64,000 nt of DNA from NCBI GenBank assembly GCA_025544715.1, contig GCA_025544715.1_4109.1. One strand, written 5' to 3'. Source of the stretch: Escherichia coli. Lineage in GTDB: Bacteria > Pseudomonadota > Gammaproteobacteria > Enterobacterales > Enterobacteriaceae. The number at the start of each line of letters is the position of its first letter. Position 1 is the first letter of the stretch. Shown one piece after another: positions 3,621 to 57,649 of this stretch. The notes beneath the pieces were generated by a model. That model was given only the letters and a program-made list of their open reading frames with translations, did not search any database and was not told the origin of the DNA. Position numbers and translations under genes: made by a program.

Positions 3621-3784
3621 TATGCATTTCTGCATTCAACAGGATTGTCATTACTACAACAAACATTATAGCACAAACTTTAAAGTTGTCTCACTATTTT
3701 TATAAAAATATTCATTAAGTACTTAAAATATTGCAAATAACTAATCCATAAATATTTTGATAACAAATAGTTTGGTGAGGAATT

Positions 3785-8308: not shown

Positions 8309-8396
8309 TGTATTTTACTCTCCATGTTTAAATCCAATAGGTACAATCCTTGTACCATCAATGTTATTATAGCACCAAAAAGCATTTTGTCCCACG

Positions 8397-31338: not shown

Positions 31339-31366
31339 ATTATATCACATTCTTACGGTTTGTCTA
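31339..31366 (-). promoter_or_regulatory. Sigma70-like promoter (-35 TAGACA, 16 nt spacer, -10 TATAAT with upstream TGTGA) for the ClpA-like gene
   Basis: Minus-strand reading: TAGACA-aaccgtaagaatgtga-TATAAT; about 40 nt upstream of ClpA ATG 31298. Confidence 0.6.
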
Positions 31367-31408
31367 CAAGGTAAATAAAGATATACCCGATTTATTTTGG
31401 AGACAAAC

Positions 31409-32902
31409 ATGACATATAGAATGTGGAAAAAAGGTAGAACCAATGATTACAAGTTCATTGATTCTGCCATTGCTGAACAATACAACATTGGTGGAGTTGA
31501 CATGTGGCTTTATGCATATGTCGGTCCAAAACAAGTTGCTGACAACACTGACTTATCCTATGGAGGTGATTATACATCTTCAGGATCAGTTGTGTCAAGT
31601 ATTGGCGATTTAATTTTTGGTGACACACCAAACAGAAACTACAACCTTGAAGCTATCACACTTAGTTGTGTCTATCAAGTTCAAGAAGCAACTCCAGACT
31701 TGAAAATCCCAGGATTGTTCTTTAATTTCAACACTATGGACATCACAATCCATTATAATACAATGATGCAGCGTTTAGGTAGAAAAATCATGCCAGGGGA
31801 TGTGATAGAACTACCAAATTTACGTGATTTTGATGTATTGGGTAAAGATACAGGTCTAAACCGCTTCTATGTCGTCCAAGATGCATTTCGTACATCTGAG
31901 GGATACTCGGTTACGTGGCAACATCACATTTATAAACTTAGAGTTAAACCGCTAACCGACTCACCTGAGTACTCCGATTTACTCGGTAACAATAATTATC
32001 CTGATAATCCAGATGACCCTAATAATGGTAATGGAAATACCGATGATGGTTCGTCGGAAAACAGTAACTATGACAATGAAATGGATATCATGAACCGTAT
32101 CATCATGCAAGCTGATGATGAAGTACCCTACATTCATTTTACAAATGAACATTTGTATGATGATCGACCTGATACTGTAGATTTATCAAAATATATGCTT
32201 AATGGTTATGATTTCCCAGAAGAACCTGCCGATGGAATGTATTTTTTGAAAAAAACATACCCAGTACTCAAAGAGTTTGTTAATGATACATGGATTTCTG
32301 TGGAAGTCAAGCGTGGAACTATCTTTCCCAGAAAACCAATGGATGGTGACTTCTTCTTTAAAGAAAATGACGCAGATGTGACAGGTTATACGTTGTATCA
32401 ATATGATAAAAGTGCTAAAAAATGGTTAAATTGTGATGTAGAATATACTACCAGTGATGTTCCACCAGAAGATGTGGAAGATTTTTGTATTTTTTATAAA
32501 GAACCACACATTTATCAGTATAATGATGACAAGTGGGGGGAACCAAAGGTAACTTATGTCAATGAACCATTCACGTCCAATTGTGTATATGGTAATATTG
32601 ATTCCCAACAAGATTATCGTCCTAAAATTCCACCAGCACGAGGTACTGTCCCTGAAGGAAATATGTTCCCGACTGATGCAGTAGATGGTGACTATTTCTA
32701 TCGTACCGATTATACCCCAGTTACGTTATGGGAATTCAATGCAACTAAGAATTCATGGGTTATTTTTGATTATGGTGGAAGAAAACCGTGGGAAGGTGCA
32801 GACCTAGCACTTACACAGTTTGTAAATAGTGATAACAAAGTTCCATTACATGACGCAGTTAAACCTAATACTGTTTATCGCATACATAAGGACACAGAAT
32901 GA
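31409..32902 (+). CDS. Hypothetical protein (497 aa), probable virion/baseplate component
   Basis: ORF with GGAG RBS 6 nt upstream of ATG 31409 (ORF track begins at TTG 31397). Confidence 0.5.
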   Translation: MTYRMWKKGRTNDYKFIDSAIAEQYNIGGVDMWLYAYVGPKQVADNTDLSYGGDYTSSGSVVSSIGDLIFGDTPNRNYNLEAITLSCVYQVQEATPDLKIPGLFFNFNTMDITIHYNTMMQRLGRKIMPGDVIELPNLRDFDVLGKDTGLNRFYVVQDAFRTSEGYSVTWQHHIYKLRVKPLTDSPEYSDLLGNNNYPDNPDDPNNGNGNTDDGSSENSNYDNEMDIMNRIIMQADDEVPYIHFTNEHLYDDRPDTVDLSKYMLNGYDFPEEPADGMYFLKKTYPVLKEFVNDTWISVEVKRGTIFPRKPMDGDFFFKENDADVTGYTLYQYDKSAKKWLNCDVEYTTSDVPPEDVEDFCIFYKEPHIYQYNDDKWGEPKVTYVNEPFTSNCVYGNIDSQQDYRPKIPPARGTVPEGNMFPTDAVDGDYFYRTDYTPVTLWEFNATKNSWVIFDYGGRKPWEGADLALTQFVNSDNKVPLHDAVKPNTVYRIHKDTE

Positions 32903-34242
32903 AAATAGATTATTATTATGACGGTCAATTTCGCAGAGTACTGAAACATCTTATCAGAGTTTTTGGTGAATTTCAAGTACAAAATGGTGTTGATGCTAAT
33001 GGAAACCCAAAATACAAAAAGGTTCCATGTCGCTATGCCGATATTTCAAGAATGGCAGCAGCAATTATAAATGGGAATAGTGAAAATGTTCTCCCATCAG
33101 CACCTATAATGACCATAAGTGTTAATCAACTAAAGTTGGATCGTAAAAATATTCGTTCTAATGCCAACGAAACTATAGTAATGGGGTCTAACAAGACCCC
33201 TGCTATTAATGAGTACACAAAAGAACTTGACACACAATACAAAATTGTAAGACATAACCCAGTACCTTGGACTTTTACGTTTGATTTGAATATTTGGGTA
33301 ACTCAAACTCAAACTAAAATGGAATTATTCGAACAAATCTCAACTTTGTTTGCACCTAGTATACAACTTCAATTATCTGATAACCCGTTAGATTGGACAT
33401 CGCTTAGTGATGTTGAACTAATAGATTGTCAGTTTTCTACTCGTGGTTTTCCACAAGGAACTGACCCAGATTTGGATATAATGGTTTTAACATTTGAAAC
33501 GACAATATGGTTTTCTTTACCAGCTATTGTTGAAAAACCAAAATTAATTCAACAGATTACTACAAATATTAAAGGTGCTCGTGACGAATTTGATTTTGAA
33601 ATGGGAAATTATTCAGATATAATAACAGATGTTTTTACACCAAAGAACTTATGTATTAAAGTTGAAGAAATTACTAATTCCAAGTATAATTTACCTGATA
33701 CATACCAACTTACCTTGGTTAGCCAATCGCTATCTGCGGTTTCTCCCAACGGTGGAATATATTCATGGGAAAAATATCTTAAATATCTAGAACCAAATTT
33801 TGATGATAAAAAAGTAGGGATTAAATTTCAACAATCTATTGAAGAAGACAACCCACTAAAAGGTCATATAGCGTCGTATGGTGAAAATGAAGATGCCAAC
33901 AAAATTATAGTACAGCTTGATAATACAAATTATACTGTTGATTATACTATACATGGGTTTGTGCAGAAAGATTCAGTACTTTCAAATGCATTACCTGAAC
34001 AATATTATGTAAATAACAGTATACATAACATCATTTATAAAGAAACCGAAATCCCATCAAATTATTTGTTTAAAATTACAAATGATGGTGCACAATTAAT
34101 TGAACCATCTACTGTACGAAATTACATTTATAATAAAGAAGACAATGGTTATTATAGATATAATGACAAATTTAAATGGCATAAAAGTATAATGCCTGTG
34201 TATCGTCAGGGATATTGGAAAATAACTTTCACTGACAAATAA
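32899..34242 (+). CDS. Hypothetical protein (447 aa), probable virion component
   Basis: Start overlaps upstream stop (ATGA), indicating translational coupling. Confidence 0.5.
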   Translation: MKIDYYYDGQFRRVLKHLIRVFGEFQVQNGVDANGNPKYKKVPCRYADISRMAAAIINGNSENVLPSAPIMTISVNQLKLDRKNIRSNANETIVMGSNKTPAINEYTKELDTQYKIVRHNPVPWTFTFDLNIWVTQTQTKMELFEQISTLFAPSIQLQLSDNPLDWTSLSDVELIDCQFSTRGFPQGTDPDLDIMVLTFETTIWFSLPAIVEKPKLIQQITTNIKGARDEFDFEMGNYSDIITDVFTPKNLCIKVEEITNSKYNLPDTYQLTLVSQSLSAVSPNGGIYSWEKYLKYLEPNFDDKKVGIKFQQSIEEDNPLKGHIASYGENEDANKIIVQLDNTNYTVDYTIHGFVQKDSVLSNALPEQYYVNNSIHNIIYKETEIPSNYLFKITNDGAQLIEPSTVRNYIYNKEDNGYYRYNDKFKWHKSIMPVYRQGYWKITFTDK

Positions 34243-34255
34243 AGGAGGTGTTGTT

Positions 34256-34720
34256 ATGAATGAAGCGGTTGGTGCTATATTTTTATCAAAAAGTACTGGA
34301 CATATGATGTTAAACTTGCGTTCTGAAAGAAGTACCTATTCTAACAACTGGGCATTTGTTGGTGGAAAGCTTGAACATAACGAAACACCATTACAAGGTC
34401 TGATGAGAGAAATTAAAGAAGAGTTGGGCAACTCAATACCTAACATTATTGATATTATACCGTTTGATGTATTTTGTACAAAAAATGGTAAATTTAAATA
34501 TTATTCATTTGTTATTGTAGTTGAGAATGAATTTGTACCGACTTTAAATCATGAAAGCTCTGGTTATGCTTGGGTTAGAATTGGTTCTTGGCCTAAACCA
34601 TTACACCCTGGTGCTAAAAATACTTTACTTAACACAAACTTAATGAAAGATTTTTACTCACTATGGGAAAGTATACGTGAAGGTACACAGTTTGTCAACA
34701 GTTTACCATATAGATATTAA
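34256..34720 (+). CDS. Nudix hydrolase
   Basis: 154 aa; exact Nudix box GGKLEHNETPLQGLMREIKEELG (Gx5Ex7REUxEExGU); AGGAGG RBS. Confidence 0.8.
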   Translation: MNEAVGAIFLSKSTGHMMLNLRSERSTYSNNWAFVGGKLEHNETPLQGLMREIKEELGNSIPNIIDIIPFDVFCTKNGKFKYYSFVIVVENEFVPTLNHESSGYAWVRIGSWPKPLHPGAKNTLLNTNLMKDFYSLWESIREGTQFVNSLPYRY

Positions 34721-34723
34721 AAC

Positions 34724-34752
34724 AAAAAGGAGCCGTGTGGCTCCTTTTTTTA
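34724..34752. terminator. Bidirectional terminator between the Nudix gene and the minus-strand cassette
   Basis: A5 then GGAGCC-gtgt-GGCTCC then T7. Confidence 0.85.
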
Positions 34753-35850
34753 TACTCCAATAATCGGAATACCTGTAATATTTAACAACACGGATGCTTG
34801 TAGTTTAACGGATTCACCAGCAGTTAGATTACTAATGCTACCATCAACTCGAAAACCTAAATTTTTATTTGAGTTTAGAGAATTGATAACCCAATTTTCA
34901 TAATCAGCTTTAGATGTTCCATTAGGATTTGGAATAGATGGATCTACACCATTAATAACAATATTTACGTCCCAGTTTGGGCGACTACTGGTAATAACAT
35001 CTTTTATGGATTCTAATTGTGTAATCCTACGTGGGTCTGGCATTTGACTTGCCCCAACCGAACCAGGAACAAAAGTTCCTTGATTATCTACATAGAATTG
35101 CCCTTTTATAAAAAAGGTTTTTGAATTATAGGGAAGAGAAACTATCTCACCAGAAGAATCATTTACTTCTCTAATCATAATTTTTAATTCATAGAAATAG
35201 TTGCTACCAAATTCAAATACACCAGTACCATTAGTTAATGTTGTCCAGTTATTTGTATCTACTTGTGAAGTACCACCTAAGTTAAAATACGCAATTGGTT
35301 TAGTACTGTTACTTTGTGTGAACTCTATATATTTTTTACCATTATCATAGTTAATATCTAATAATGATGAATACTCTTTGTTTTCTGGTCTAGATGTTTG
35401 AATTTCACGCCATTCTTTGTTTTTCATTAACACACGAAGAGAATCACCGTTACTAGTTAATACCATACGACCCATAACACTATTTTCACCATCAGGTACT
35501 GTGTTAAAAACAGTAATCATAGGTATAGACGCCCATTCAGCTTCAGTTACAATATCAGCAGGTTGTCTAGCATTATCAACTAATGATATCAATAACTCAC
35601 CAGTACTACCAGTGTTTCTATACCAAAGTTGACCATTGACGTTACCACGTGGTGCAGATGCTGAACTGAAATTTTCAACTAAATGTAAAAAGTTTTCGTT
35701 CCATGCTTGACCATAACTTACTTTGTTTCTACCAACTAAATTTAACGGAACTGGGTTACTTCCTGGCTGGTTTGGTCCTAAAATAACATTATTTGGAATG
35801 GTAGCATAAACACTACCATTACTTCTATAAATTGTATAATTAACACTCAT
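34750..35850 (-). CDS. Hypothetical protein (366 aa)
   Basis: First gene read into the 34724-34752 bidirectional terminator; part of a three-gene minus-strand cassette. Confidence 0.5.
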   Translation of the reverse strand: MSVNYTIYRSNGSVYATIPNNVILGPNQPGSNPVPLNLVGRNKVSYGQAWNENFLHLVENFSSASAPRGNVNGQLWYRNTGSTGELLISLVDNARQPADIVTEAEWASIPMITVFNTVPDGENSVMGRMVLTSNGDSLRVLMKNKEWREIQTSRPENKEYSSLLDINYDNGKKYIEFTQSNSTKPIAYFNLGGTSQVDTNNWTTLTNGTGVFEFGSNYFYELKIMIREVNDSSGEIVSLPYNSKTFFIKGQFYVDNQGTFVPGSVGASQMPDPRRITQLESIKDVITSSRPNWDVNIVINGVDPSIPNPNGTSKADYENWVINSLNSNKNLGFRVDGSISNLTAGESVKLQASVLLNITGIPIIGV

Positions 35851-35862
35851 TATATGTCCCCA

Positions 35863-36471
35863 TTATTGTAATTGTACACGAACTGTGTATTTAATTTGTA
35901 AGACACGGTTTGCACTTTTCTCAACTGGGTGAAAAATGATATGGGTTAAAGGAATACCACTATCTCCATCCGTGTACAATCCCAATTCATCAAATACATA
36001 AGTTCCATCCATGCTTGTCCCTGAGCTTACACCTTGGTCGGATGGTTCACCTAACCCTAGAGTACAAATACATACAATATCAGTATAGGACTGACCTGGT
36101 ATATGTACAGTTGTAATATTATTGTATTGTGAATCAATACCTGCCGTAATTCGTGGGTTGATTTTTTTCAAATATGTTTGTGAATACAAACCACCAAATG
36201 ATGTAACACGTGGTTTTTTATAAGTAACACGCCCAGTACTTAAAACTACTGTACCACCATTACCAAAACGCATCTCGCTAATAGAACCAATAGGAATACC
36301 AGTACTGTCTTGATTATATGCTAACGCATTAGCAATGGCAGTACTCATATTTTCAGGGTGAATAGCGTTAGATTTATCTAAAACGATTTTTTGATTTGAT
36401 GGATCAGTAACGTCAGTAATTAGGACATGACCTTTAACAAATAGTTTTGGTTGTTCTGTTTCTAATTTCAT
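35863..36471 (-). CDS. Hypothetical protein (202 aa)
   Basis: Tightly packed ORF in the minus-strand cassette. Confidence 0.5.
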   Translation of the reverse strand: MKLETEQPKLFVKGHVLITDVTDPSNQKIVLDKSNAIHPENMSTAIANALAYNQDSTGIPIGSISEMRFGNGGTVVLSTGRVTYKKPRVTSFGGLYSQTYLKKINPRITAGIDSQYNNITTVHIPGQSYTDIVCICTLGLGEPSDQGVSSGTSMDGTYVFDELGLYTDGDSGIPLTHIIFHPVEKSANRVLQIKYTVRVQLQ

Positions 36472-36480
36472 TTCTAATCC

Positions 36481-36978
36481 TTAGTAGTTAATTAAAATTT
36501 GTTCTAACTTCCCAGCTAAACTTTTTTGGACATCTGATGGATACTTACTAATATAATCACGGTCTATACCAACTTTAAGGTAAGTAAAATTACCAGTTAC
36601 TGTTTCAGCAAATGTTCCGGTAGTTCCTTGTTGTCTAATTAAATCCCCACCATTTGGATTTAAAATAACCATATCAGTAAATTCAAGATAATAATTACAA
36701 CTTTCAGTGAATTTAATTGGAAACCAATCATCATCAGTAGGATTACTAGCTAATGTAGCTAACACATAAATTCTACCAATAAAATTACGTAGTGTAAATG
36801 AAATCGTATGTAAACCTGTAGTACAGCCATAGTAGCCACCACTAGCAAGTGGTAACGTTTGTTCATTCCAGTGATAATCCAAGTTAGCTGGATACCAGCT
36901 ATCAGATTCAGGAAAATCTTGCCATGAACCATCTTTTGTTTTTCTTCTGAAGAGAAAGTCTTTTGATCTTAATGCCAT
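36481..36978 (-). CDS. Hypothetical protein (165 aa)
   Basis: First ORF of the minus-strand cassette; divergent from the fibre gene at 37089. Confidence 0.5.
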   Translation of the reverse strand: MALRSKDFLFRRKTKDGSWQDFPESDSWYPANLDYHWNEQTLPLASGGYYGCTTGLHTISFTLRNFIGRIYVLATLASNPTDDDWFPIKFTESCNYYLEFTDMVILNPNGGDLIRQQGTTGTFAETVTGNFTYLKVGIDRDYISKYPSDVQKSLAGKLEQILINY

Positions 36979-37088
36979 TGTTTAAGCCCTTTTAGTAGTG
37001 AACTTTCATTTATTTATTAATGATAACGAAATGTATTTTGTACTGATAAATATTGGTATATGACATTAACTCATACAAGGGAAATATT

Positions 37089-38204: not shown

Positions 38205-38218
38205 GGGAGGATGTCATA

Positions 38219-40360: not shown

Positions 40361-40376
40361 AGGAGATTATATTAAA

Positions 40377-41273: not shown

Positions 41274-41280
41274 AAAATTA

Positions 41281-41315
41281 ACCAGACTTGTTCTAAATAA
41301 GTCTGGTTTTTTATT
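41281..41315 (+). terminator. Rho-independent terminator
   Basis: ACCAGACTT-(9 nt loop)-AAGTCTGGT followed by TTTTTATT. Confidence 0.8.
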
Positions 41316-41410
41316 ATATTTGCTTTTGTCAAATAATGTATTAATTGTTGGATAACAGCATAATAAAACTAAATATATACATATTAACAAGGTTATAATG
41401 GAGGGTATAA

Positions 41411-44400: not shown

Positions 44401-47390
44401 AACAAATGCAGTAGTTTCTGGTGATGTTTCAGCAGCAACAGCTTCAATCTCAGGTGCAATTACTGGTGGTTCAGCAACACTATCTGGTGCTGGAACTGCT
44501 CTAAATGTAACTAATAATGCAACTGTCGGTGGTACACTTACTGTTGGTTCTATTACTTCAGCGGCAGAAAATGTATCCATTACTAAAAATACCGCTGTCA
44601 CTGGTAATTTAGCAGTATCTGGAACTCTAACTGCTGGTGTTATTGATTTGAGCACAACTGATGTTTCTGTGAAAACTTTAACTTCTCTTGGTGACGCAAC
44701 AGTTCGTGGTAACTTAACTGTTGATGGTTCTATTGACCTAAGTTCCGCAAACATCGTTGGTGTAACACTAGAAAGTACTGGCTCCACTACCGTAGGTACT
44801 GATTTGATACTAACTACTGGTAACATTACAGGTAGTCCATCTATTTCTGGTAACTTAGGTGTAACTGGAACTACAACTTTAACTGGTGCAACAACAGTTT
44901 CAAACACATTGAATACTGCTGGTAAACTAACAGTTAATGCTGGGGGAATTCAGGTTGTTGCAGGTGATATACAAGTTGATTCTGGAACTATTAATGCTCC
45001 TAGTGCTAATATTTCTGGTAGTTCAACACTTAATAGTGCTACTGTAACCACTACACTCGGTGTTACTGGGGCAGCAAGTATGAATGGTGGTTTAACTGCT
45101 TCTACTTTGGATGTAACAGGTGATAGTACAGTACAAAAACTAACTGTTAAAGGTGTATTTGTTCCTGAAGGTGGTTTGGACCTTTCCGGTGCTGATCTTA
45201 ACGTGAATAGCGTAACTGCTGCAACCACATTAAGTGTTACTGGTGCTAGTACTCTGACTGGTGGTGTTTCCACTTCAACAGTATCTGCATCCGGTAAGGT
45301 AACCGCACAAGAACTAAGTACTGGTACATTGGATGTAACCACAAATGGAACTGTTGGTGGAACTTTAGGTGTAACTGGTAAAGCAACTGTTGGCTCACTA
45401 GATTCAGGTGCAATATCTGCTACATCTGGTACATTTAGTACTACACTGGATGTAACTGGAGCAGCAACATTTGGTAATAATGTTAATATTACTGGCACAT
45501 TAACACCAGGTGCATTGGATTTAACTAGTACTGATGTAGTTGCTAACAGTCTTTCTGTTGCATCAACCCTACATTCAGATGGCAATGCAACAATTGGTGG
45601 TACATTAGGTGTAACTAGTGCAGTAACTGCTCCATCAATCGCTCTTAATGGTGAAGGTACTGCGTTGGCAGTTACTAATAACGCAACCATTGGTGGTACA
45701 TTAGGCGTAACTGGTAAAGCAACTGTTGGATCACTAGATACAGGTGCAATCTCTGCAACATCTGGTACATTTAGTACTACATTAGATGTGACTGGTGCAG
45801 CAACCTTTGGTAATAATGTTAATATTACTGGCACATTAACACCAGGTGCATTGGATTTAACTNNNNNNNNNNNNNNNNNNNNNNNNNNNNNNNNNNNNNN
45901 NNNNNNNNNNNNNNNNNNNNNNNNNNNNNNNNNNNNNNNNNNNNNNNNNNNNNNNNNNAACTAGTACTGATGTAGTTGCTAACAGTCTTTCTGTAGCTAC
46001 AACTCTACATTCAAATGGTAACGCAACCATTGGTGGAACATTAGGCGTAACTGGTGCAGTAACTGCTCCATCAATCGCTCTTAATGGTGAAGGTACTGCA
46101 TTAGCAGTTACTAATGACACAACGATTGGTGGTACATTAGGCGTAACTGGTGCTACAACTTTAGGTTCTCTAACAACCTCTGGTGCAGTTAAAACTGGTG
46201 CTAATGTTATTATCGGTACTAAAATTGGTGAACAACCAGAGACAGTTCAGATTTTCCCTAATACTTACATTGCAGGCTCCTTGCGTGTAGATGGTGGTAT
46301 CAACGCTGATATTGACGTTAGTGGTCAAACAATTGAACCTTATGCAGTTGTTGCGGCTGACACTATTAGTGCAGCGGGTAATATTACTTCTGGTGCAGAG
46401 TTGATTTCCAAATCAGCAACTATTGGTGATGTTGGTTCACAAAACAACAACTTAACAATCAATGGTAACGTAGTTAACAACGGTAACTTTACAGTAACTG
46501 GTCTACTAAACGCAACACTAAACCAAGCAAACTCTGACGTGGCTGTTAAATCATTAACTGCAACCAACAGTGTTGCTGCTGGTACTAGTATTACCGCAGG
46601 TACAAGTATTACTGCAACTGGTCTACTAAAAGGGAACACCCTTGAAGTAACTACTACTGGTTCATTTGGTGGTGCAGTAACAATGTCAAGTGGTGCTAAC
46701 ATTACTGGAACCGTTGGAATTACTTCTGGTAACCTAACTGTTGGTGGTGATATTTCTGCAACAGGTACTGCAACCCTAGCAGCAACTTCAGTAACTACCA
46801 TTACTACTTCTGGTGCAGCAACACTTGCTAGTGCATCTGTTACTGGAGCAGCAACAATCGGTGGTACTTTAACTGTTACTGGTTTAATGACTGCAAATGG
46901 TAGTGTTGTTTTAGGTGACGCTGCTGCTGATACATTAACTGTCAATGCAACATCTTCTTTCAAAGAAAATGCAGTATTTGATAAAGATGTAACTGTAACT
47001 GGTCAATTAACAACTACTAATGCTGACCTAACTACTACAACAGTAACTACTAAAAAATATGATGTTATTCCTAATCAAGTAACTTCTTCTGTTATCGCAC
47101 CAACTGGTACTTGGACCCCAGACGGTACTAGCAACGTATACTTTATCACTCTAGATCAAGATACCACTCTAGCACCAATCACTGGTCTAATCGGTGGTGG
47201 TAAAGCATCTTCAGTATACATTTATGTGAAACAAGATGCAACAGGTAATAGAAACTTTACTACTGATGGTACTTATGCGGTTGTTGATGGCACACTGAAC
47301 AAAACTGCAAACTCTGTAACTATCTACCAAGTCATTTATGACGGTGTGAGTCCAGTAACAGATATGTTTATTGCACAACGTACTGCTTAA
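41411..47390 (+). CDS. Giant repetitive tail fibre protein (about 2,000 aa or more), interrupted by an assembly gap
   Basis: ORF track splits this into 41411..45964 and 46281..47390, but the stop after the N-run is a frame artefact: sequence after the gap continues the same repeat in an open frame (TSTDVVANSLSV...). Thr/Gly/Val-rich beta-strand repeats of about 112, 140 and 155 aa. Confidence 0.65.
45377..46150 (+). repeat. Tandem 336 bp (112 aa) near-identical repeat units within the fibre gene, copy number unresolved
   Basis: Unit starting GGTAAAGCAACTGTTGG at 45377 recurs at 45713, and a third partial copy follows the gap. Confidence 0.8.
45863..45958. other. Assembly gap (96 N) inside the tandem-repeat region of the giant fibre gene
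   Basis: Run of N; flanking sequence is the same position in consecutive 336 bp repeat units (pre-gap ends ...GGATTTAACT, post-gap begins AACTAGTACT...). Confidence 0.95.
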
Positions 47391-47406
47391 TAATTATAAT
47401 AATAAA

Positions 47407-47431
47407 GGTGTCACTCATTTTGGGTGACACC
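47407..47431 (+). terminator. Stem-loop after the giant fibre gene (no clear U-tract)
   Basis: GGTGTCAC-(9 nt)-GTGACACC; downstream sequence is not T-rich. Confidence 0.35.
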
Positions 47432-47454
47432 ATCATAACAAGTGAGGTAGTTAT

Positions 47455-48234: not shown

Positions 48235-48242
48235 TTAATAAT

Positions 48243-48275
48243 AAAGGTCAACTATGGTTGGCCTTTATTTGTTTC
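48243..48275 (+). terminator. Rho-independent terminator (AAGGTCAA...TTGGCCTT family)
   Basis: AAAGGTCAAC-tatg-GTTGGCCTTT (one G-U pair) followed by ATTTGTTT. Confidence 0.7.
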
Positions 48276-48291
48276 AATATAAGGAAAATAT

Positions 48292-49905: not shown

Positions 49906-49914
49906 TAACATATT

Positions 49915-49946
49915 AAGGTCAAGCCTATGCTTGGCCTTTTCTTTTA
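49915..49946 (+). terminator. Rho-independent terminator (same family as 48243)
   Basis: AAGGTCAAGC-ctat-GCTTGGCCTT followed by TTCTTTT. Confidence 0.75.
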
Positions 49947-49992
49947 ACTAAAATAAATACATCATATAAATCTATTCTGAGGAAATATTTAA

Positions 49993-51957
49993 ATGAGTAT
50001 AAATCGAATTAGAGGTGATGGTGGTGTAATTATCGATAGTAAATCTTTTTTAGAGTTACCGAAAGCACCATCAAAAGAAACCGCTGATGTAATAAGATCA
50101 GGGATGATTAGATACAATAAGGAATGGAAATCATTTGAAGGTGTTCTGGATTTTGAAGATGGTACTATGGCATATCGCCGCTTTGCAAACTTAGATGCAA
50201 ATGGTAAACTTCTTACTTCCCAATTACCAGATTCAGTAACTAGTGGTTTACAGTTTGTTGGTACATACAATCCTATCCCAGATGATATTGATCCACCTTT
50301 AGCACAAACACCACTACCAGCACCAGCAGCATCACTAAATGGTGATTATTATGTTGTTCGTGGTATTATGGATGCAGCACAAGCACACTTTGAAGCAAAT
50401 AACCCACAAACAAGTCCGGTTACATTTACACCTACGAACCCAACTGGTCAAGGTAATTGGATTGAAATTTTATATTATATTGACTCCAATCCAAATATAT
50501 CTGGTGCTAAACTTGTAACATACGCTTTTGCAAGAATTATTACTGCATCTATTCCTAGTACTGGTCATGAAGGTCTTGAAAATTTAGCAACTGATGCTGA
50601 CTTAACTAAACCATTTGCTTCTGGCGTTCCAATGAACCAGACCGCACTATCAGATGGTGATTGGATCATTATAACTGAAGATAAAAACATACGTCTACGC
50701 CAGTCAAGAACAAGCATTTCTGCTGCTTCTGTATTATATGACAATACAGTAATGATTGCAAACCATCGTCAATTTAGAACGAACGCAGGAACCGTACAAA
50801 CATCCATAGATAACGTTGTGATTGAATGTTTGCGTAGAACTGGCGATTCCATGTATAATGATGGAACAAGCGGCTCAGGGCGTTTTGGTGTGGTCTATGG
50901 TAGTGCAGCAGCACCAGCATTGACATTTAATAACAATCCATTTGATCCAACCAATAACCCAGGTAATGATCCTACCAAATGGTCAGACGCTAATACTGGT
51001 ATATTTCATCCAGCAGATGATGCAATTGGTTTCAGTACTGCTGGAACTGAACGTATTAGAATTAATAATTCAACATTAACATTATACCAAACAACTTCAA
51101 CCCCAGCATCAACCCCAGTACTAAGATTTGATAATGCAACCAATACTAATGTTGGACTAAGTGCTAGTAGTAATATTATTTCATTTAGTTCAATGAATAA
51201 AGTACAAGTTGAATTTAAAAATGGTGAAAGTGCGTTTCATGGTAATATTGTGGTTGATGGTACAAGCACATTGACTGGTGATACATCAGCTAGTAATATC
51301 ACTGCTAGTGGTAATTTGAACATTCAAGGTAATACCATATTAGGCGATGCTGCATCAGATACAATTACAGTTAATGGAGTTAGTACGTTTACAGCAAACA
51401 CCAATTTCAATGGAACAACTAATAAATTTAAAAATATAAATCTATTAGCTAATGGTATAATTACATTAGAAAGTACTACTAACCAAAGTACAATCCAATT
51501 AGTTAGTTCTGATTTAAAACTATCAATGGGTAATTATGCTGATGTAAGTATCTATGATAATGGAACTATAAGAGCACGTTTTAATAGATATGGTATCCAA
51601 TTACCAGTACTAGCTACTATTGATAACTCTGTTGGCGTTGATGGTATGATTGCATACTCCAATACCGAGCGTACTTCAATGCAAAAAGTTCAAGGTCAAT
51701 GGGTTCCAATTGGTTCAGGTTCAGTGAGAACCGATGCTTTTACCATTTCATCTTGGGTATTAAGTGGTAACTACTACACCCTTACTGTAACAGCCTCAAA
51801 CATCGTCACAGCAGAGATACAGGAACAGGTTAGTCCTGGTGTCTATACTCGTGTTGAGGTCGATAGCGTTACGTTTAACGGCACTAACGTAGTGTTTAGT
51901 ATACCTTCAACTCCTGATGTACGTTTCGACGGAAGAACATTGGTAACAATTAGATAA
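49993..51957 (+). CDS. Tail fibre protein (654 aa)
   Basis: Last gene of the plus-strand fibre block; Thr/Ser/Asn/Gly-rich C-terminal half; strong bidirectional terminator downstream. Confidence 0.5.
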   Translation: MSINRIRGDGGVIIDSKSFLELPKAPSKETADVIRSGMIRYNKEWKSFEGVLDFEDGTMAYRRFANLDANGKLLTSQLPDSVTSGLQFVGTYNPIPDDIDPPLAQTPLPAPAASLNGDYYVVRGIMDAAQAHFEANNPQTSPVTFTPTNPTGQGNWIEILYYIDSNPNISGAKLVTYAFARIITASIPSTGHEGLENLATDADLTKPFASGVPMNQTALSDGDWIIITEDKNIRLRQSRTSISAASVLYDNTVMIANHRQFRTNAGTVQTSIDNVVIECLRRTGDSMYNDGTSGSGRFGVVYGSAAAPALTFNNNPFDPTNNPGNDPTKWSDANTGIFHPADDAIGFSTAGTERIRINNSTLTLYQTTSTPASTPVLRFDNATNTNVGLSASSNIISFSSMNKVQVEFKNGESAFHGNIVVDGTSTLTGDTSASNITASGNLNIQGNTILGDAASDTITVNGVSTFTANTNFNGTTNKFKNINLLANGIITLESTTNQSTIQLVSSDLKLSMGNYADVSIYDNGTIRARFNRYGIQLPVLATIDNSVGVDGMIAYSNTERTSMQKVQGQWVPIGSGSVRTDAFTISSWVLSGNYYTLTVTASNIVTAEIQEQVSPGVYTRVEVDSVTFNGTNVVFSIPSTPDVRFDGRTLVTIR

Positions 51958-51995
51958 TAAAAAAGGGAGAACATTAGTTCTCCCTTTTCGTTTAT
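51958..51995. terminator. Bidirectional terminator between the last fibre gene and thyA
   Basis: A-run then GGGAGAAC-atta-GTTCTCCC then TTTTCGTTT. Confidence 0.85.
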
Positions 51996-52921
51996 ACAGC
52001 CATAGGTGCTTTAATTGTTGGCATTGGGTTGTAATTCACTAATTTGAAAGAATCCATTGTGAAATCTTCAATATTAGTAATTGTAGGATCAAGCCACAAT
52101 TCAGGTAATTCACGAGGTTTTCGCTGTAGTTGTTCTTTTACTTGTTCAACGTGGTTTTTATAAATGTGACAATCACCACCATTCCAAATAAATTCACCAA
52201 CATCTAAACCAGTAATTTGTGCAATCATATGAGTTAGTAGTGAGTAACTACTGATATTAAATGGAACTCCCAAAAATAGATCAGCGGAGCGTTGATGTAG
52301 AATGCAGCTTAGTTTCCCTTGTACTACACAAAATTGCACAAAGCTATGACAAGGTGGCAACGTCATATCATCAAGCTCACCAACGTTCCAGGCACTTAGA
52401 ATGTGGCGACGACCATATGGATCGGAATGTATACCTTTGATTAGTTCTTGTAATTGGTCAGTTGTACGTTTCATAACAACACCATGTGAACCAGTATAAT
52501 CGATAACTTTGTATCCTTTATCTTTTAATTCTTGAATTTCTTCAGTACTGGAACTAAATTTATAATCTTCCCATTCACGCCATTGCTTACCATACACTGG
52601 ACCCAATTCACCATCAGTATAACCAAGAGCAACGCCTTGATTTAGGTAATTATCTGTCCAAATTGTTTTCTTTTCAGTATCACGAGTTCCATGCAAAATT
52701 TCACAAAGGCGACGCTCATCATGGGAACCTTCAATAAACCATAGTAATTCTGAAGTCATTGCTTTCCAAGCTAGACGTTTTGTCGTCACTGCTGGGAAAC
52801 CATCGTTAAGGTCGAAACGCATTTGTTGACCGATAAGTTTGATTGTCCCAACACCAGTACGGTCAACGCTTTCTACGCCTTCATCTAGAATTTTTTGATA
52901 TAGTTCTTGTAGTTGTTTCAT
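51992..52921 (-). CDS. thyA: Thymidylate synthase (ThyA family)
   Basis: 309 aa; catalytic LPPCH, HQRSADLFLGVPFNISSYSLL, GGDCHIYKNH, C-terminal IKAPMAV; Asn in the PFNI motif implies a uracil-type substrate. Confidence 0.9.
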   Translation of the reverse strand: MKQLQELYQKILDEGVESVDRTGVGTIKLIGQQMRFDLNDGFPAVTTKRLAWKAMTSELLWFIEGSHDERRLCEILHGTRDTEKKTIWTDNYLNQGVALGYTDGELGPVYGKQWREWEDYKFSSSTEEIQELKDKGYKVIDYTGSHGVVMKRTTDQLQELIKGIHSDPYGRRHILSAWNVGELDDMTLPPCHSFVQFCVVQGKLSCILHQRSADLFLGVPFNISSYSLLTHMIAQITGLDVGEFIWNGGDCHIYKNHVEQVKEQLQRKPRELPELWLDPTITNIEDFTMDSFKLVNYNPMPTIKAPMAV

Positions 52922-53514
52922 TATACTTCCTTGAAAAATGTAATAAAATGTTCCATATGTTTTTCTGTGGCATTGCGTGAACCAATACCAGTCCAGTTTC
53001 CATGTGGAGGTGGAACCACGAATGATTGTTGGAACTCTTTCAGTACTGTATCGAAATAAAATACTGAACGTGAATTCATATCATAACAATAAATTTCAGG
53101 ATTTTCAACTGAATCCATATACATCTGTACTGCCCATGCAGTACCACCACTTACCTTAGTTGGTGATGTGATATTTGCAATACAATATATTCTTTCTGTA
53201 TTAAGTATCTGATAACTATTCCTTGCAAGTAAGTTGTAAACATAAGAACCAGGCTTCGGTACTTTTCGCTGTAACGAGTAACATGCAATGTTTAGTTGAT
53301 TTAATATAGAAATATCAGATAGAATATTGGATGGTATTTCTAATATAGTACTTTCATCTACACTATGCTCATGACCTTTGAATGAAAAATTAATAACTTC
53401 AAATCCATTATTTTTTGCATAGATAGAAAAAAGGCGGTCAGCACCTGCTGCCCCGCCACTAAAACATACATTAGATAAACCTTTTATTGCTTCATCTAAT
53501 TCATTCTTTTTCAT
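52921..53514 (-). CDS. Hypothetical Rossmann-like protein with SGGAAGAD loop (SLOG/DprA/YpsA-like?)
   Basis: 197 aa; stop overlaps the thyA start (TAATG); Gly-rich loop FSGGAAGADRLFS resembles the DprA/YpsA/LOG nucleotide-binding loop. Family assignment is a guess. Confidence 0.5.
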   Translation of the reverse strand: MKKNELDEAIKGLSNVCFSGGAAGADRLFSIYAKNNGFEVINFSFKGHEHSVDESTILEIPSNILSDISILNQLNIACYSLQRKVPKPGSYVYNLLARNSYQILNTERIYCIANITSPTKVSGGTAWAVQMYMDSVENPEIYCYDMNSRSVFYFDTVLKEFQQSFVVPPPHGNWTGIGSRNATEKHMEHFITFFKEV

Positions 53515-53517
53515 ATT

Positions 53518-54174
53518 TTATTTTGCTTTACGTTCTGCAAATAGTTGTTTTACTTTCTCAATAGCTTTAGTCTGTGAAATACCTTCTGGAATTTCTAGAT
53601 AAATTGTTTTACTATCTTTCGGTTGTTCAACAACTTGTGTTTGTGGACGCAAACTTGGCTCTAAATTATATGCACGTTCATAATGTTCTTTAGCCAGTTT
53701 TTCATATTTTTGTGCATCAGTGAGAAGTTGTTCTACAATAGTAGCTTCTTCTACTTTAGTGTCAGCTTCTTGTGGATTGAATGGGTTAAAGTCTTTTACT
53801 TTACCATCTTCTTGTACTTTTGCTTGATTTTCATCTAATGCTTTGTTTAGAACATCAAGAGAAATTTTATTATTACCACCAGTGTGCATATCAATGTCAC
53901 AAGTACGAACGCGACGTAGATGCTGCATATTGTGTAGAACATCTAGCATTTTGCGTCCATCGAGATAACCAATTTTATGCATTACTTCCCACAAATCAAT
54001 ATTAGATTGACCATGACCCATAACAATATCAGTTACTGCGTGAACATATGCTTCTGGTAGTGAATCACGATAAACAATAAGGCAGTGTTCAGGATCATCT
54101 GGTAGTGAACGCCAAACAACAAAAACACGAGAACCTGTATTACGCATTACACCAACATGACGAATAGCTGCCAT
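53518..54174 (-). CDS. Hypothetical protein (218 aa)
   Basis: Tightly packed in the same minus-strand operon. Confidence 0.5.
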   Translation of the reverse strand: MAAIRHVGVMRNTGSRVFVVWRSLPDDPEHCLIVYRDSLPEAYVHAVTDIVMGHGQSNIDLWEVMHKIGYLDGRKMLDVLHNMQHLRRVRTCDIDMHTGGNNKISLDVLNKALDENQAKVQEDGKVKDFNPFNPQEADTKVEEATIVEQLLTDAQKYEKLAKEHYERAYNLEPSLRPQTQVVEQPKDSKTIYLEIPEGISQTKAIEKVKQLFAERKAK

Positions 54175-54176
54175 AA

Positions 54177-54437
54177 TTATTCTCCTTTATCTTCTTGAGT
54201 TTCACTATCTTGTGATTCAGCTTCTTCTTTAGCTGCATCTTCTTGTGCTTTAATATCTTCAAGAGCTACATTTGCAAAAGAAACAAATTTAGATACAACT
54301 GGAGCAACCTCAACAAGTTCTTCAACTTTAAAGGTGTTTCGTGCAACAGCAGCTTCCATAATTTTTGCAGCATTGATTAGGTCTAGAAGGGTTAGTTGAA
54401 TTTGATTATTTTCTTGTTCCATTTTAATACTCTCCAT
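54177..54437 (-). CDS. Small acidic hypothetical protein (86 aa; may start at internal Met, 54422)
   Basis: Second ATG has a GGAGAG RBS; sigma70-like promoter immediately upstream. Confidence 0.4.
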   Translation of the reverse strand: MESIKMEQENNQIQLTLLDLINAAKIMEAAVARNTFKVEELVEVAPVVSKFVSFANVALEDIKAQEDAAKEEAESQDSETQEDKGE

Positions 54438-54445
54438 GTATATTG

Positions 54446-54473
54446 GTACATTAACTATTATATCATATTTTTA
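54446..54473 (-). promoter_or_regulatory. Sigma70-like promoter (-35 GGGACA, 16 nt, -10 TATAAT), same family
   Basis: Minus-strand reading: GGGACA-acttataaaaatatga-TATAAT; just upstream of the 86 aa gene and downstream of a minus-strand terminator. Confidence 0.5.
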
Positions 54474-54486
54474 TAAGTTGTCCCAC

Positions 54487-54520
54487 TTATAAAAAGAAGA
54501 GAACGGAAAATTCCGTTCTC
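54487..54520 (-). terminator. Rho-independent terminator (minus strand) after the vWA gene
   Basis: Minus-strand reading: GAGAACGG-aatttt-CCGTTCTC followed by TTCTTTTTATAA. Confidence 0.7.
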
Positions 54521-54532
54521 ATTATTTAGTAC

Positions 54533-55957
54533 TTAACTACGTTGACGCTTTTTATCAGCTTCATATTCGTAGTGTACAGTCTCACCAAATGGTGCAACTT
54601 TATTTGGGTTACTGTGAATCACGAACAGTGTTTTACAGTAGTTTGGATCACCCCACGACTGCCACGGTTCACCATCTGTAAACATTACAAGCTGTTTAGG
54701 CTTGTAGTTGTCGTTCTTCATATGAACCCATACTGCTTCAAAGTCAGTACCACCACCACCTTTTACTGGATATTCCAGAATCTTACGTTCTTCGCCAGTT
54801 TTGTAATCCTTTACAGTATAAACTTCAGTATCAAAAGTCATGATACGAATCTTAAACTGTTTGAATTGTTTAGTGATACCTAGAACTTCACTAATGAAAT
54901 CACGAAGCATATCTTCAGAAATAGATCCAGAAGCATCTAGTGCAATCGCAATATCAATGTCATCATCTGGTTTCATCCCTGGGTAAATTGGATTACCATA
55001 GAATGAACCATTAGAACCAAAACCTGCACCCCAAGAACGACGATTCGGATTTTGATATGTTGCATCAGACTTCAACCAACTACGAAGTGTGCGTTGAAGT
55101 TTTGAACGCCAGTCAATCTTTGGTTCTTTAAAGTTGTTAATCATACGAGCGATTTCTGCTGGTGTACCACCTGCACGAGCAGCATTCATCATTGCTGTTT
55201 TGAAATCATCCATGTAATCACGTTTTTGTTTCTCACTTGAACCACCCTCTTGACCTTCTTGTGGAACGTCATGCTGGTCAATTGTAGTACCTTTTGGTTT
55301 ACCCTTACCATCTTTAATATCGCCAAAAGTACCGCGATTTTTACCTTCACCTTCGCTACCACCACTTTGTGGTTGACCTTCACCTTCACCATCTTCTTTT
55401 TGTTCTTCTTCTTCAAGAAGAATGTAAATCTCTTCTGCGGTCATACCTTCATATTTTTTATCATACAACCATGAACTTTGGATTTTTCCAATTTTCTCAC
55501 GAACGATGATTTGGTTAATGGCATAATCCGCTGCACGGTTATAACGTTGTGGATCACGCATACCACGACGAAGGAAGTGATCGTAAGCACAGTGTAGAAT
55601 TTCATGACAAATTACAGCAATAAGGTTTTCATCAGTCAAACCTTCAGTCATTTCTTTTAATTGTTCGTCTGTAACTTCAGGGTGCTTTTCACGAATAGCT
55701 TCTTCATATTCTTTCTTTTTAGATGGGTCTTGAATGCCCATTACAAATTCTACGTTGTAGAATAGATGTTTACCATCCACTGCTAGAGTACGACACCATG
55801 TATTATTAGGAACTGGACGTAAACGTGAAGCGAGTACGCCAAAGAATGGTGCAGTTAACATCAAAGATGTACGAGCCAGAACCAGACGATCTTGACATTC
55901 TTTCTGAAGTGCAGGAGATACTTCATTGAATATGGAAGTAGATTTGTTATCTGACAT
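54533..55957 (-). CDS. vWA-domain protein with N-terminal zincin-like metallopeptidase motif (DUF2201-vWA type)
   Basis: 474 aa; HEILH (HExxH) in N-terminal half; vWA MIDAS motif DASGS in C-terminal half; acidic Gly-rich linker. Confidence 0.75.
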   Translation of the reverse strand: MSDNKSTSIFNEVSPALQKECQDRLVLARTSLMLTAPFFGVLASRLRPVPNNTWCRTLAVDGKHLFYNVEFVMGIQDPSKKKEYEEAIREKHPEVTDEQLKEMTEGLTDENLIAVICHEILHCAYDHFLRRGMRDPQRYNRAADYAINQIIVREKIGKIQSSWLYDKKYEGMTAEEIYILLEEEEQKEDGEGEGQPQSGGSEGEGKNRGTFGDIKDGKGKPKGTTIDQHDVPQEGQEGGSSEKQKRDYMDDFKTAMMNAARAGGTPAEIARMINNFKEPKIDWRSKLQRTLRSWLKSDATYQNPNRRSWGAGFGSNGSFYGNPIYPGMKPDDDIDIAIALDASGSISEDMLRDFISEVLGITKQFKQFKIRIMTFDTEVYTVKDYKTGEERKILEYPVKGGGGTDFEAVWVHMKNDNYKPKQLVMFTDGEPWQSWGDPNYCKTLFVIHSNPNKVAPFGETVHYEYEADKKRQRS

Positions 55958-56031
55958 GTATATTTCCTCGTTTAGTTAAGATAAAAGAAGGATACCATTA
56001 GGCATCCTTCTTGTCAACAACTCTTTGTTAA

Positions 56032-57357
56032 TTAGCCAAGAGAGCGTGCTTTACGTACAAGTTCAGAGTACTTAGCGATGAAATCTTTAAACGCTGGTAC
56101 ATCTTTAATGGAAATCGCAACCTTATGAAGCGTGATGGTACGAATTGCCAGTACTGCCAGTTCTGCTTGAGTTGCAGAGAAGTTATGGTCTAGGAAGGTG
56201 ATGAAGTTGTTACACAGTTTACCCCATTCTTCCACTGGTAGACGTTGTTCTTGCTTCTCATTGAACAGGTCGATAATTTTATAAACCAAGTTCAGAGTGA
56301 TAAAGTAGTTCGCAGAAATATCCAGCGTTGCGTCGATTTCTTTGATTTCACCAGACAGAATAGACATAGTATCTGGTAGTTTAGCAACGTTCTCAACGTA
56401 CTCAATGTATTCAGTCGCAACACCTTCACCAACACGACCAGCAATCATTGCACGGAACACTTCTTTATCAATTGTCTTATTTTTCTTGAGATCTTCGTAG
56501 CGTGCTACTGCTTCCCATGAACGTGGAGAAGTACCACCGCTGTGAGAAGGATCTTGTGGGCTAAGTGTGTTAAAGTACTTAGAACCAGTGTTGTTGATGA
56601 ACGCAACAGTTGCTGGGTTCAAACGTTTTGCAATCGCATAATCGTTAATCCAATCTTGATGATAAGGAATCATCTCAATGTGAGTCATACGGTCACGCAG
56701 TGGTGTAGCAAGAGAGAACGTTACACCGCCATCAGTTTCACGGTTACCTGCTGCAAGAATCAGTGCAGTCTTAGGTAGCTTCATCTCACCAACACAACGG
56801 TCGAGGATTAGCTGATAAGACGCTGCCTGAACAATAGGCATTGCAGAGTTAATTTCGTCAAACAGAATAACACCTTTCCAATCTTCGGACAATTTCAGTA
56901 CTTTAGGTGCAGCCCATACTACCGCTGTTTCAGCTACATAATCTTTTGCTTCGGCAAGCTCAGATTCTTTCAGAAGAGAACCGTCAGTTTTACGGAAAAG
57001 CTTCTCTGGAACTGGAATACCGCGAAGGTCACTTGGTTCAATTTGAGACAAACGGAAATCGATAAAGTTAGTATCTTGGTCGATTAGTTTTGCTTCAAAT
57101 GCAGCCAGTTCACGGCGTAGCTGATCAGCATTTTCAGGGTCAGCTTCGATTTGTTGTTTCATGAACTCGATTTTAGCTACGTTATCTTTACGCAGTGGGT
57201 AATTTTCATCAGCATATTGACGAGCGATAGCAGACTTACCGATACCTGGGCTACCCCAAATCATCAGGCTATCTTGAATCATGTCAGCCAGTGCCATTGC
57301 TTCTTTAGCTTTCTTTGGAGTCAGTTTAACGTTCAGGATATCGTTTTGAGTAGTCAT
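56032..57357 (-). CDS. MoxR/CbbQ/CobS-like AAA+ ATPase (AAA_5 type)
   Basis: 441 aa; Walker A GSPGIGKS, Walker B ILFDEINS; AGGAAA RBS; immediately upstream of the vWA gene. Confidence 0.8.
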   Translation of the reverse strand: MTTQNDILNVKLTPKKAKEAMALADMIQDSLMIWGSPGIGKSAIARQYADENYPLRKDNVAKIEFMKQQIEADPENADQLRRELAAFEAKLIDQDTNFIDFRLSQIEPSDLRGIPVPEKLFRKTDGSLLKESELAEAKDYVAETAVVWAAPKVLKLSEDWKGVILFDEINSAMPIVQAASYQLILDRCVGEMKLPKTALILAAGNRETDGGVTFSLATPLRDRMTHIEMIPYHQDWINDYAIAKRLNPATVAFINNTGSKYFNTLSPQDPSHSGGTSPRSWEAVARYEDLKKNKTIDKEVFRAMIAGRVGEGVATEYIEYVENVAKLPDTMSILSGEIKEIDATLDISANYFITLNLVYKIIDLFNEKQEQRLPVEEWGKLCNNFITFLDHNFSATQAELAVLAIRTITLHKVAISIKDVPAFKDFIAKYSELVRKARSLG

Positions 57358-57526
57358 GTATATATTTCCTTTTGTTGGATAAAATCGTTTAAGTTTCTAT
57401 TATAGCCAATCCGTGGGCAAAAGTAAAGGAACTGTGTTAAAATAATTTAACTTATCAGTTCCTTTGTTACTTCATGAATCATCCGTGTGTTTAAAAGGTA
57501 AATCTCTTTGCTGTCTTGATGTGAAC

Positions 57527-57554
57527 ATTATATCACATCGTTTCAACTTGTCAA
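57527..57554 (-). promoter_or_regulatory. Sigma70 consensus promoter (-35 TTGACA, 16 nt, -10 TATAAT), proximal copy
   Basis: Minus-strand reading: TTGACA-agttgaaacgatgtga-TATAAT; about 170 nt upstream of the AAA+ ATPase start. Confidence 0.65.
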
Positions 57555-57621
57555 TCACTTTTTTTCTTTTTTTTTTCAAACTCACATCTTGTGACGCTTG
57601 AAAACTTTATGTATGATGCTT

Positions 57622-57649
57622 ATTATATCACATCATTCTATCTTGTCAA
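57622..57649 (-). promoter_or_regulatory. Sigma70 consensus promoter (-35 TTGACA, 16 nt, -10 TATAAT), distal tandem copy
   Basis: Minus-strand reading: TTGACA-agatagaatgatgtga-TATAAT; 95 bp upstream of the proximal copy. Confidence 0.65.

Follow-up and report, generated by a model that had tools for sequence, protein, structure and literature searches.

Predicted host-type extended -10 promoters ahead of the ClpA-like, AAA+/VWA and thyA genes of an Asteriusvirus jumbo phage

Origin of the DNA and organization of the locus

The DNA analyzed here is a stretch of 64,000 nucleotides (nt), contig GCA_025544715.1_4109.1 of an Escherichia coli assembly, referred to below as the window. The elements in question are promoter-like sites of the form xxGACA-N16-TATAAT, which precede a ClpA-like gene, an AAA+ ATPase gene and a thymidylate synthase (thyA) gene cluster on its minus strand. 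According to megablast, the window is closest (~98% identity) to the E. coli jumbo myoviruses PBECO4, 121Q and G17 of the genus Asteriusvirus. It corresponds to roughly 268-332 kb of 121Q in reverse-complement orientation, and its minus strand is therefore the main coding strand of the phage. The complete annotated genome of 121Q (348,532 bp) was used as the reference for all genome-wide counts. The relatives compared were TH47 (~81% identity) and Turkey5 (~78%), the whole range of these relatives being 78-86%, together with members of other genera: RaK2 (Alcyoneusvirus), GAP32 and CBB (Mimasvirus) and pEa_SNUABM_44 (Eneladusvirus, hereafter pEa44).

The features of the locus are collected in Table 1. 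Comparison with Pfam and PHROGs identified the downstream proteins as ClpA/ClpB-like, MoxR/N4 gp24-like, DUF2201_N plus VWA-like, DprA/SLOG-like and thymidylate synthase. An earlier note, made from the sequence of the window, had named the ClpA-like, AAA+, VWA and ThyA products correctly. Two gene starts were revised. For the ClpA-like gene, the most likely start codon is the ATG at 31298, preceded by AGGAG, rather than the GTG at 31319. For the gene that opens the thyA unit, position 54422 is the most likely start (81 amino acids (aa), GGAGAG upstream), and not 54437, which would give the '86-aa' product. The same note had placed the AAA+, VWA and ThyA genes in a single operon. The strong terminator at 54520-54499 stands directly ahead of the promoter at 54484, and the ATPase/VWA and thyA genes are instead predicted to form two units, split by this intrinsic terminator and an internal promoter. 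A weight-matrix scan of the window found no separate promoter for the 474-aa DUF2201/VWA gene.

Table 1. Features of the locus, with positions in the window (class B is defined under the promoter classes of 121Q)
Feature	Positions	Strand	Remarks
P1, upstream tandem promoter of the ATPase unit	57622..57649	-	TTGACA-16-TATAAT with TGn; A-rich upstream tract
P2, downstream tandem promoter of the ATPase unit	57527..57554	-	TTGACA-16-TATAAT with TGn; long A tract upstream
Terminator-like hairpin in the ATPase leader	57418..57465	-	AAAGGAACUG...CAGUUCCUUU, then ACUUUUG; hairpin proper 57465-57425
P3, doubtful third ATPase promoter	57399..57427	-	TTTACT-17-TATAAT, no TGn; overlaps the hairpin tail
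MoxR/N4 gp24-like AAA+ ATPase gene, 441 aa	56032..57357	-	
Hairpin with weak T tail between ATPase and VWA genes	55985..56012	-	
DUF2201_N (putative metallopeptidase) and VWA-like gene, 474 aa	54533..55957	-	
Strong intrinsic terminator closing the ATPase/VWA unit	54499..54520	-	9-bp stem and T run
Class-B promoter of the thyA unit	54457..54485	-	TGGGACA-16-TATAAT, TATGA ahead of -10; 27.7 bits
Four-gene thyA unit	51992..54422	-	81-aa, 218-aa, 197-aa DprA/SLOG-like, thymidylate synthase
Terminator after thyA	51960..51989	-	13-bp stem
Promoter of the ClpA-like gene	31339..31367	-	GTAGACA-16-TATAAT, ATGTGA ahead of -10; 31366-31339 when counted from the hexamer TAGACA
ClpA/ClpB-like double AAA+ gene, 762 aa	29010..31298	-	ATG at 31298, AGGAG ribosome-binding site
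Promoter of the gp55-like late sigma gene (additional member)	8366..8394	-	class B, TGGGACA...GGTGCTATAAT
Promoter without open reading frame downstream (additional member)	3665..3693	-	class B, TGAGACA...TGTGCTATAAT; 29.0 bits
Structured non-coding RNA core, ~510 nt	3150..3658	-	predicted transcript of the class-B promoter 3693-3665

Promoter family in the window

The sites are very probably genuine host sigma-70 extended -10 promoters which open pre-replicative transcription units. The four minus-strand motifs described in the earlier note are present as xxGACA-N16-TATAAT with TRTGn ahead of the -10 element, one of them having been placed 11 nt too low (54473-54446; the true hexamer span of GGGACA-16-TATAAT is 54484-54457). 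Two additional members of the family were found at 8391-8366 and 3690-3665, bringing the number in the window to six, and the -10 element is a perfect TATAAT at all of them. The five last bases of the spacer are TGTGA or TATGA at each of the four noted sites, and all six sites display TG at positions -15/-14, as TGATATAAT or TGCTATAAT just ahead of the -10. The TGTGA/TATGA element is therefore the classical extended -10 and not a new motif. The upstream boxes are less uniform. P1 and P2 agree with TTGACA in all six positions, the ClpA site in five and the thyA-unit site in four. Conversely, the 7-mer TGRRACR ending 16 nt ahead of TATAAT is present at 54485-54457, 8394-8366 and 3693-3665 and absent at P1 (GTTGACA) and P2 (ATTGACA), the ClpA site (GTAGACA) being borderline.

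P2 and P1 are located 170 nt and 265 nt upstream of the ATPase ATG, respectively. Transcription is predicted to start near 57615 from P1, near 57520 from P2 (163 nt ahead of the ATPase ATG), near 54450 for the thyA unit and at 31331-31334 for the ClpA-like gene; for the two additional members, the predicted starts are at ~8359 and ~3658. The -10 element of P1 (57622-57627), which reads TACAAT in 121Q (274057-274062), matches TATAAT perfectly in the window and in both TH47 and Turkey5. The third candidate, P3, is kept within Asteriusvirus; RaK2 does not preserve its -10, and P3 is considered doubtful for this reason.

Six matches to the strict pattern GACA-N16-TATAAT were counted in the window for 0.39 expected, and none of 100 shuffles gave six. 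All six are on the minus strand, intergenic and oriented toward what lies downstream. The frequency is thus far from that of random positions, which the earlier note had named as the outcome that would speak against the family. The weight-matrix search proposed in that note was performed with a matrix derived from 13 independent sites of 121Q, none of them in the region orthologous to the window. At a threshold of at least 12 bits, exactly the six sites are retrieved, as compared to 0.1 in shuffled sequences. The TG(G/A)GACA sites score 22-29 bits, with the best of the window at 3693-3665, and the other three 15-17 bits. A loose sigma-70 consensus scan, by comparison, returned 73 promoter-like sites in the window for 67 expected. 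This is the background rate, and only the strict pattern is therefore informative.

Such a background and the low G+C content of the phage genome (33-37%) would be compatible with matches that arose by chance in AT-rich DNA, or that are left over from local duplication and devoid of promoter function, and P1 and P2 could indeed be a tandem duplication. The strict pattern nevertheless exceeds expectation 15-fold in the window and over 10-fold across the genome, its strand and intergenic bias in the window is complete, and the boxes are kept across genera while their flanks diverge. The statistics and the conservation make this explanation extremely improbable.

Two promoter classes and the late promoters in 121Q

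The family extends well beyond the four sites which the earlier note had treated as a regulon of their own, with further members ahead of the late sigma gene and of a non-coding RNA. In 121Q, GACA-N16-TATAAT is found 37 times, compared to 3.0 expected in dinucleotide shuffles. All 37 matches are on one strand, the main coding strand, and 35 are non-coding. The narrower pattern TG(A/G)GACA-N16-TATAAT is found 11 times for 0.10 expected.

The 35 non-coding sites comprise 15 with TTGACA and no TGn, 16 with TGn and another upstream box, and 2 + 2 of mixed type. The type of -35 box is strongly associated with TGn (Fisher p = 5e-6), and the two classes sit in different regions of the genome. The TTGACA class without TGn is located at 92-154 kb, where very small open reading frames (ORFs) are found, and displays an A-rich upstream tract and an AGTACTG element. 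The consensus of this presumed early class is aaAaaA-N4-TTGACA-N16-TATAAT, with the conserved AGTACTG directly ahead of the -10. A conserved initial transcribed sequence, TTTACATCAA, was also observed, and the arrangement is repeated ahead of dozens of ORFs of 50-100 aa. The TGn class, designated class B, is dispersed over the genome and its box is mostly TGGGACA or TGAGACA. The T and G positions of the box are high in information, in contrast to the early class, which carries none there. The genes behind class-B sites encode SSB, a primase, an exonuclease, a ClpP-like protease, a nudix protein, the thyA unit and the late sigma factor, among others. A small-ORF early class is thereby set apart from a replication/late-sigma class. 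In the window, the thyA-unit, late-sigma and non-coding-RNA sites belong to the TG(G/A)GACA subclass. P1 and P2 are rare hybrids combining TTGACA, A tract and TGn.

The promoters of the family are distinct from the TATAAATA late promoters, as the earlier note had stated. The window contains three exact copies of TATAAATA, each on the plus strand and a short distance ahead of structural genes, and at none of the family sites was a late-type TATAAATA -10 without -35 found. The exact motif is depleted about four-fold in 121Q (17 copies for 67 expected, 12 of the 17 being non-coding), which fits selection against stray late promoters. The late sigma gene brings both types together: the plus-strand TATAAATA of a structural gene (8397-8404) is back to back with the -35 box TGGGACA (8394-8388), only a few nt apart, and CBB shows the same divergent layout at Porf_243/Porf_244. 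The gp55-like late sigma gene behind the 8391-8366 promoter is followed by genes annotated in 121Q as SbcD-like and recombination endonuclease. A three-step cascade is suggested, in which the TTGACA class would act before the TGRGACA class and the latter before TATAAATA.

Conservation and relation to a published promoter class

At the tandem ATPase, ClpA and thyA-unit promoters of TH47 and Turkey5, the -35 and (A/G)TGATATAAT blocks are kept and the spacers have changed. The -35 of the ClpA site is TTGACA in TH47, Turkey5 and RaK2; given the first two of these, three of the four noted sites are of the TTGACA type. The uniformity which the earlier note had ascribed to them does not hold, the site at 54484-54457 being of the TG(G/A)GACA subclass. 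RaK2 displays a single TTGACA/TGn promoter with an A tract ahead of the ATPase, TTGACA-18-TGATATAAT ahead of ClpA and TTGAACA-16-TGATATAAT ahead of the thyA unit. In GAP32, CBB and pEa44, TGAAAC(G/A)-16-TGGTATAAT precedes both the ATPase and the thyA unit, and CBB has a TGGAACG box ahead of ClpA. The attribution of the sites to host polymerase in the earlier note holds insofar as they are host-type promoters by their intergenic position, orientation, enrichment and conservation by footprinting; the use of sigma-70 itself is a prediction.

Three promoter types were predicted in Pectobacterium phage CBB by Buttimer et al. 2017 (PMC5259590): 18 RpoD-like promoters with a UP-like element, clustered in the presumed early region; 18 'divergent RpoD-like' sites (Promoter 1, Table S6) with TGAAACG and a classic -10, mostly ahead of DNA-synthesis genes and of the gp55-like sigma; and a late type represented by ~35 ATAAATA motifs. 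The motif of the divergent class was also seen in Cronobacter phage GAP32 according to the same paper. The class is thus already published for these relatives, and the promoters of the window would be further members of what was predicted in sister genera. Three of the six window sites have direct counterparts in the published table, Porf_218, Porf_235 and Porf_244 being the orthologs of the thyA-unit, ClpA and gp55-like sigma promoters, and the genes CBB_218, CBB_235 and CBB_244 the orthologs of the first gene of the thyA unit, of ClpA and of the late sigma gene. The region upstream of the ATPase also carries the motif in CBB, GAP32 and pEa44, the CBB copy being missing from the published table.

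The CBB and Asteriusvirus sites share a 29-nt architecture (a 7-mer, a spacer of 16 nt with (A/G)TGn at its end, and TATAAT), their positions and a bias toward DNA metabolism. (A/G)TGn stands directly ahead of the -10 in all six window sites and in 18 of 18 sites of Table S6. They differ in the box, which is TG(G/A)GACA in Asteriusvirus and TG(A/G)AAC(G/A) in CBB, and in the ClpA and ATPase promoters, which are of the TTGACA type in Asteriusvirus and RaK2. In both phages, the class is predicted from sequence. A literature search found no promoter analysis for any Asteriusvirus, including in the Sharanji and UE-S1 papers, and the RaK2 genome paper is likewise without one. A 'repeat_region' annotated beneath one hit most likely represents the terminal repeat reported in the Asteriusvirus literature. 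The sites listed here provide a usable promoter map for Asteriusvirus genomes, so far annotated with terminators only.

The leader of the ATPase gene

A terminator-like hairpin, annotated as a terminator in the G17 record, is located between P2 and the ATPase ATG, and the leader folds better than its shuffles (z = -3.2). A hairpin with a U-rich tail is likewise present at this place in TH47, Turkey5, RaK2, GAP32, CBB and pEa44, representing four genera, and the stems differ among relatives (GGAACUG/CAGUUCC, GGACUG/CAGUCC, AAGCACUG/CAGUGCUU and GGCACUG/CAGUGCC). The CBB counterpart is listed as terminator Torf215. In the window, CACGGAT is repeated on the flanks of the hairpin. Tracing the promoters also revealed that the MoxR/VWA pair is preceded by a promoter-terminator-gene layout kept across four genera. 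This conserved order implies attenuation or a short leader RNA, with a predicted length of ~100 nt from P2 and ~195 nt from P1, and it weakens the case for simple promoter-level control of the ATPase.

Phage T7 carries the tandem strong early promoters A1, A2 and A3, and T4 early promoters followed by terminators give delayed-early expression. The ATPase locus resembles these systems by its two consensus promoters 95 nt apart, its A-rich tracts and the terminator-like hairpin before the first gene. It differs in the large loop and the weak U tract of the Asteriusvirus hairpin.

Recognition of the promoters

In the reading favored here, host sigma-70 would read the -10 and extended -10 elements (TRTGnTATAAT), the -35-like xxGACA box being located 16 nt upstream. 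The four noted sites would start pre-replicative transcription units of an Asteriusvirus, as part of ~35-40 promoters genome-wide. At the ClpA and tandem ATPase sites, where a TTGACA-type -35 is combined with TGn, unmodified host holoenzyme should suffice at DNA entry, and the ATPase pair also has A-rich upstream tracts. The TG(G/A)GACA subclass would be the Asteriusvirus counterpart of the 'divergent RpoD-like' promoters of CBB and GAP32 and would mark replication, nucleotide-metabolism and late-sigma genes. Promoter strength and timing are, like sigma-70 dependence and the start sites, predicted properties.

The sites share with E. coli sigma-70 extended -10 promoters the perfect TATAAT, the TG at -15/-14, usually after T(A/G), and a -35 box at 16-nt spacing, which is the exact TTGACA in P1 and P2. 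They differ in that TG(G/A)GACA departs from TTGACA at the two most conserved E. coli promoter positions, and in that the phage spacing is always 16 nt, whereas the E. coli optimum is 17 nt. The extended -10 may also be likened to the TRTG '-16 region' of Bacillus sigma-A promoters.

A number of points weigh against the sigma-70 reading. The conserved box TG(G/A)GACA, represented in Mimasvirus by TGAAACG, differs from the -35 consensus of sigma-70, and the subclass may need a phage factor; the box may be either a weak -35 offset by TGn or the target of such a factor. The hairpin between P1/P2 and the ATPase ATG raises the possibility that these promoters may mainly make short leader RNAs. Finally, a literature search found no transcript mapping for any Rak2-like phage, including Asteriusvirus.

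The earlier note had proposed one uniform early regulon, in which unmodified host sigma-70 would fire all four sites at once and the ClpA-like, AAA+/VWA and thyA genes would be under common early control. GACA-N16-TGnTATAAT is indeed common to all sites, a perfect extended -10 is normally enough for sigma-70, and in Mimasvirus one promoter type is found ahead of the orthologs of all three units. However, the -35 types differ among the four sites, a difference kept in RaK2, and the units are separated by terminators. The family moreover precedes the late sigma and replication genes, functions that T4 expresses in its middle or delayed-early phase, and the separate TTGACA class without TGn, with its AGTACTG element in the small-ORF region, fits the term 'early' better. 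Uniform early control is consequently considered unlikely.

A different division of labor is plausible, though we do not hold it to be the more probable one. The TG(G/A)GACA subclass would represent middle promoters, in which sigma-70 reads the extended -10 and a phage activator or sigma-remodelling factor reads the box, the TTGACA sites being exempt. Such a system would work like MotA/AsiA of T4 without homology to these proteins. The high T and G information of the box, absent at the same place from the early class, argues for this arrangement, as does the conservation of TGRRACR across genera: the Mimasvirus box is far from TTGACA although the early class of that genus keeps TTGAC. The gene set (SSB, primase, exonuclease, thyA, late sigma) also resembles the T4 middle regulon. 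On the other hand, orthologous positions have TTGACA in place of the box, so that the latter may simply be a -35 variant, and the phage-specific -35 variant of T4 early promoters requires no factor. A low-sensitivity local tblastn with T4 AsiA and MotA sequences detected no homolog in 121Q, the best match having an E value of 0.055 and no Pfam support. The comparison with T4 middle promoters extends to a host-type -10, often with TGn, a phage-specific upstream box in place of the -35, and a position ahead of replication, nucleotide-metabolism and late-transcription genes. The MotA box, (a/t)(a/t)(a/t)TGCTTtA, is centered near -30, as opposed to TG(G/A)GACA or TTGACA at -35 in the family, and was not found at the family sites. 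The likeness is a functional analogy only.

Recognition by a phage RpoD-like sigma (121Q gene 167 or its ortholog) on host core polymerase was also considered. Rak2-like phages do encode a sigma-70-family protein with regions 2, 3 and 4 (regions 2, 3 and a partial 4 according to Pfam for gene 167), redirected transcription is assumed in published genome papers, and phiEco32 and 7-11 are precedents for promoter classes dependent on a phage sigma. In sigma-70, residues W433, W434, Q437, T440, H455 and E458 read and melt the -10 and contact the TG. The alignment of gene 167 with RpoD shows S, S, M, Y, Y and V at these positions. Lacking the sigma-70 residues for -10 and TG, gene 167 is an unlikely reader of the family, and so divergent a sigma would hardly require the exact host TGnTATAAT; its promoter specificity is probably unlike TATAAT. 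Nor do the sites resemble the promoters of the phiEco32 gp36 and 7-11 gp47 type, the -10 of the family being the exact host consensus. The residue comparison thus disfavors this candidate, which is regarded as very unlikely, and host sigma-70 remains the preferred reader.

A structured RNA behind a class-B promoter

Tracing the promoter family led to a large covarying RNA, multi-copy in Rak2-like jumbo phages and absent from Rfam. No ORF longer than 36 aa is found downstream of the 3693-3665 promoter; together with indels that are not multiples of three, this rules out a coding sequence. 121Q harbors three further paralogs with 67-71% identity, each with its own class-B promoter. According to blastn, 4-5 copies per genome are found in 71 Rak2-like phages of several genera at ~70% nucleotide identity, as compared to only 58-60% identity for the ATPase protein in the same comparisons. 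A class-B promoter is located directly upstream in five of five orthologs from other genera or species.

RNAalifold analysis of a nine-sequence alignment yielded a structure of 92 pairs in 16 helices, 42 of which pairs show compensatory double changes. Pairing is possible in 96.9% of the cells versus 41-45% with slid partners, and the covariation score is 0.453 versus 0.06-0.09 when slid and 0.16 when shuffled, with 0 of 500 shuffles reaching 0.453. A search of Rfam 15 with six copies and E values up to 1 returned no family, only unrelated weak matches to small RNAs and leaders, which rules out a known Rfam family. The long non-coding RNAs of PA5oct defined by RNA-seq gave a 5.6-bit, hairpin-level nhmmer match only, and homology was not detected. 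The literature search found no description of the ~510-nt RNA. A conserved 27-nt block of the RNA is found in IMG/VR almost exclusively in contigs of ~350-370 kb, with three exceptions of 23-174 kb.

It is tentatively proposed that TG(G/A)GACA-N16-TGnTATAAT might define a factor-dependent middle class in all Rak2-like jumbo phages, operating without MotA/AsiA. The thyA unit, the genes for replication and the late sigma factor, and the 4-5 paralogous ~510-nt RNAs per genome would all be part of its regulon; this broader proposal is considered doubtful.

A search of the whole window with Rfam and ARAGORN gave no match at gathering thresholds. A run of 96 consecutive non-ACGT characters, corresponding to masked or undetermined bases, was observed at 45863-45958 within a long tail-fibre-like ORF.

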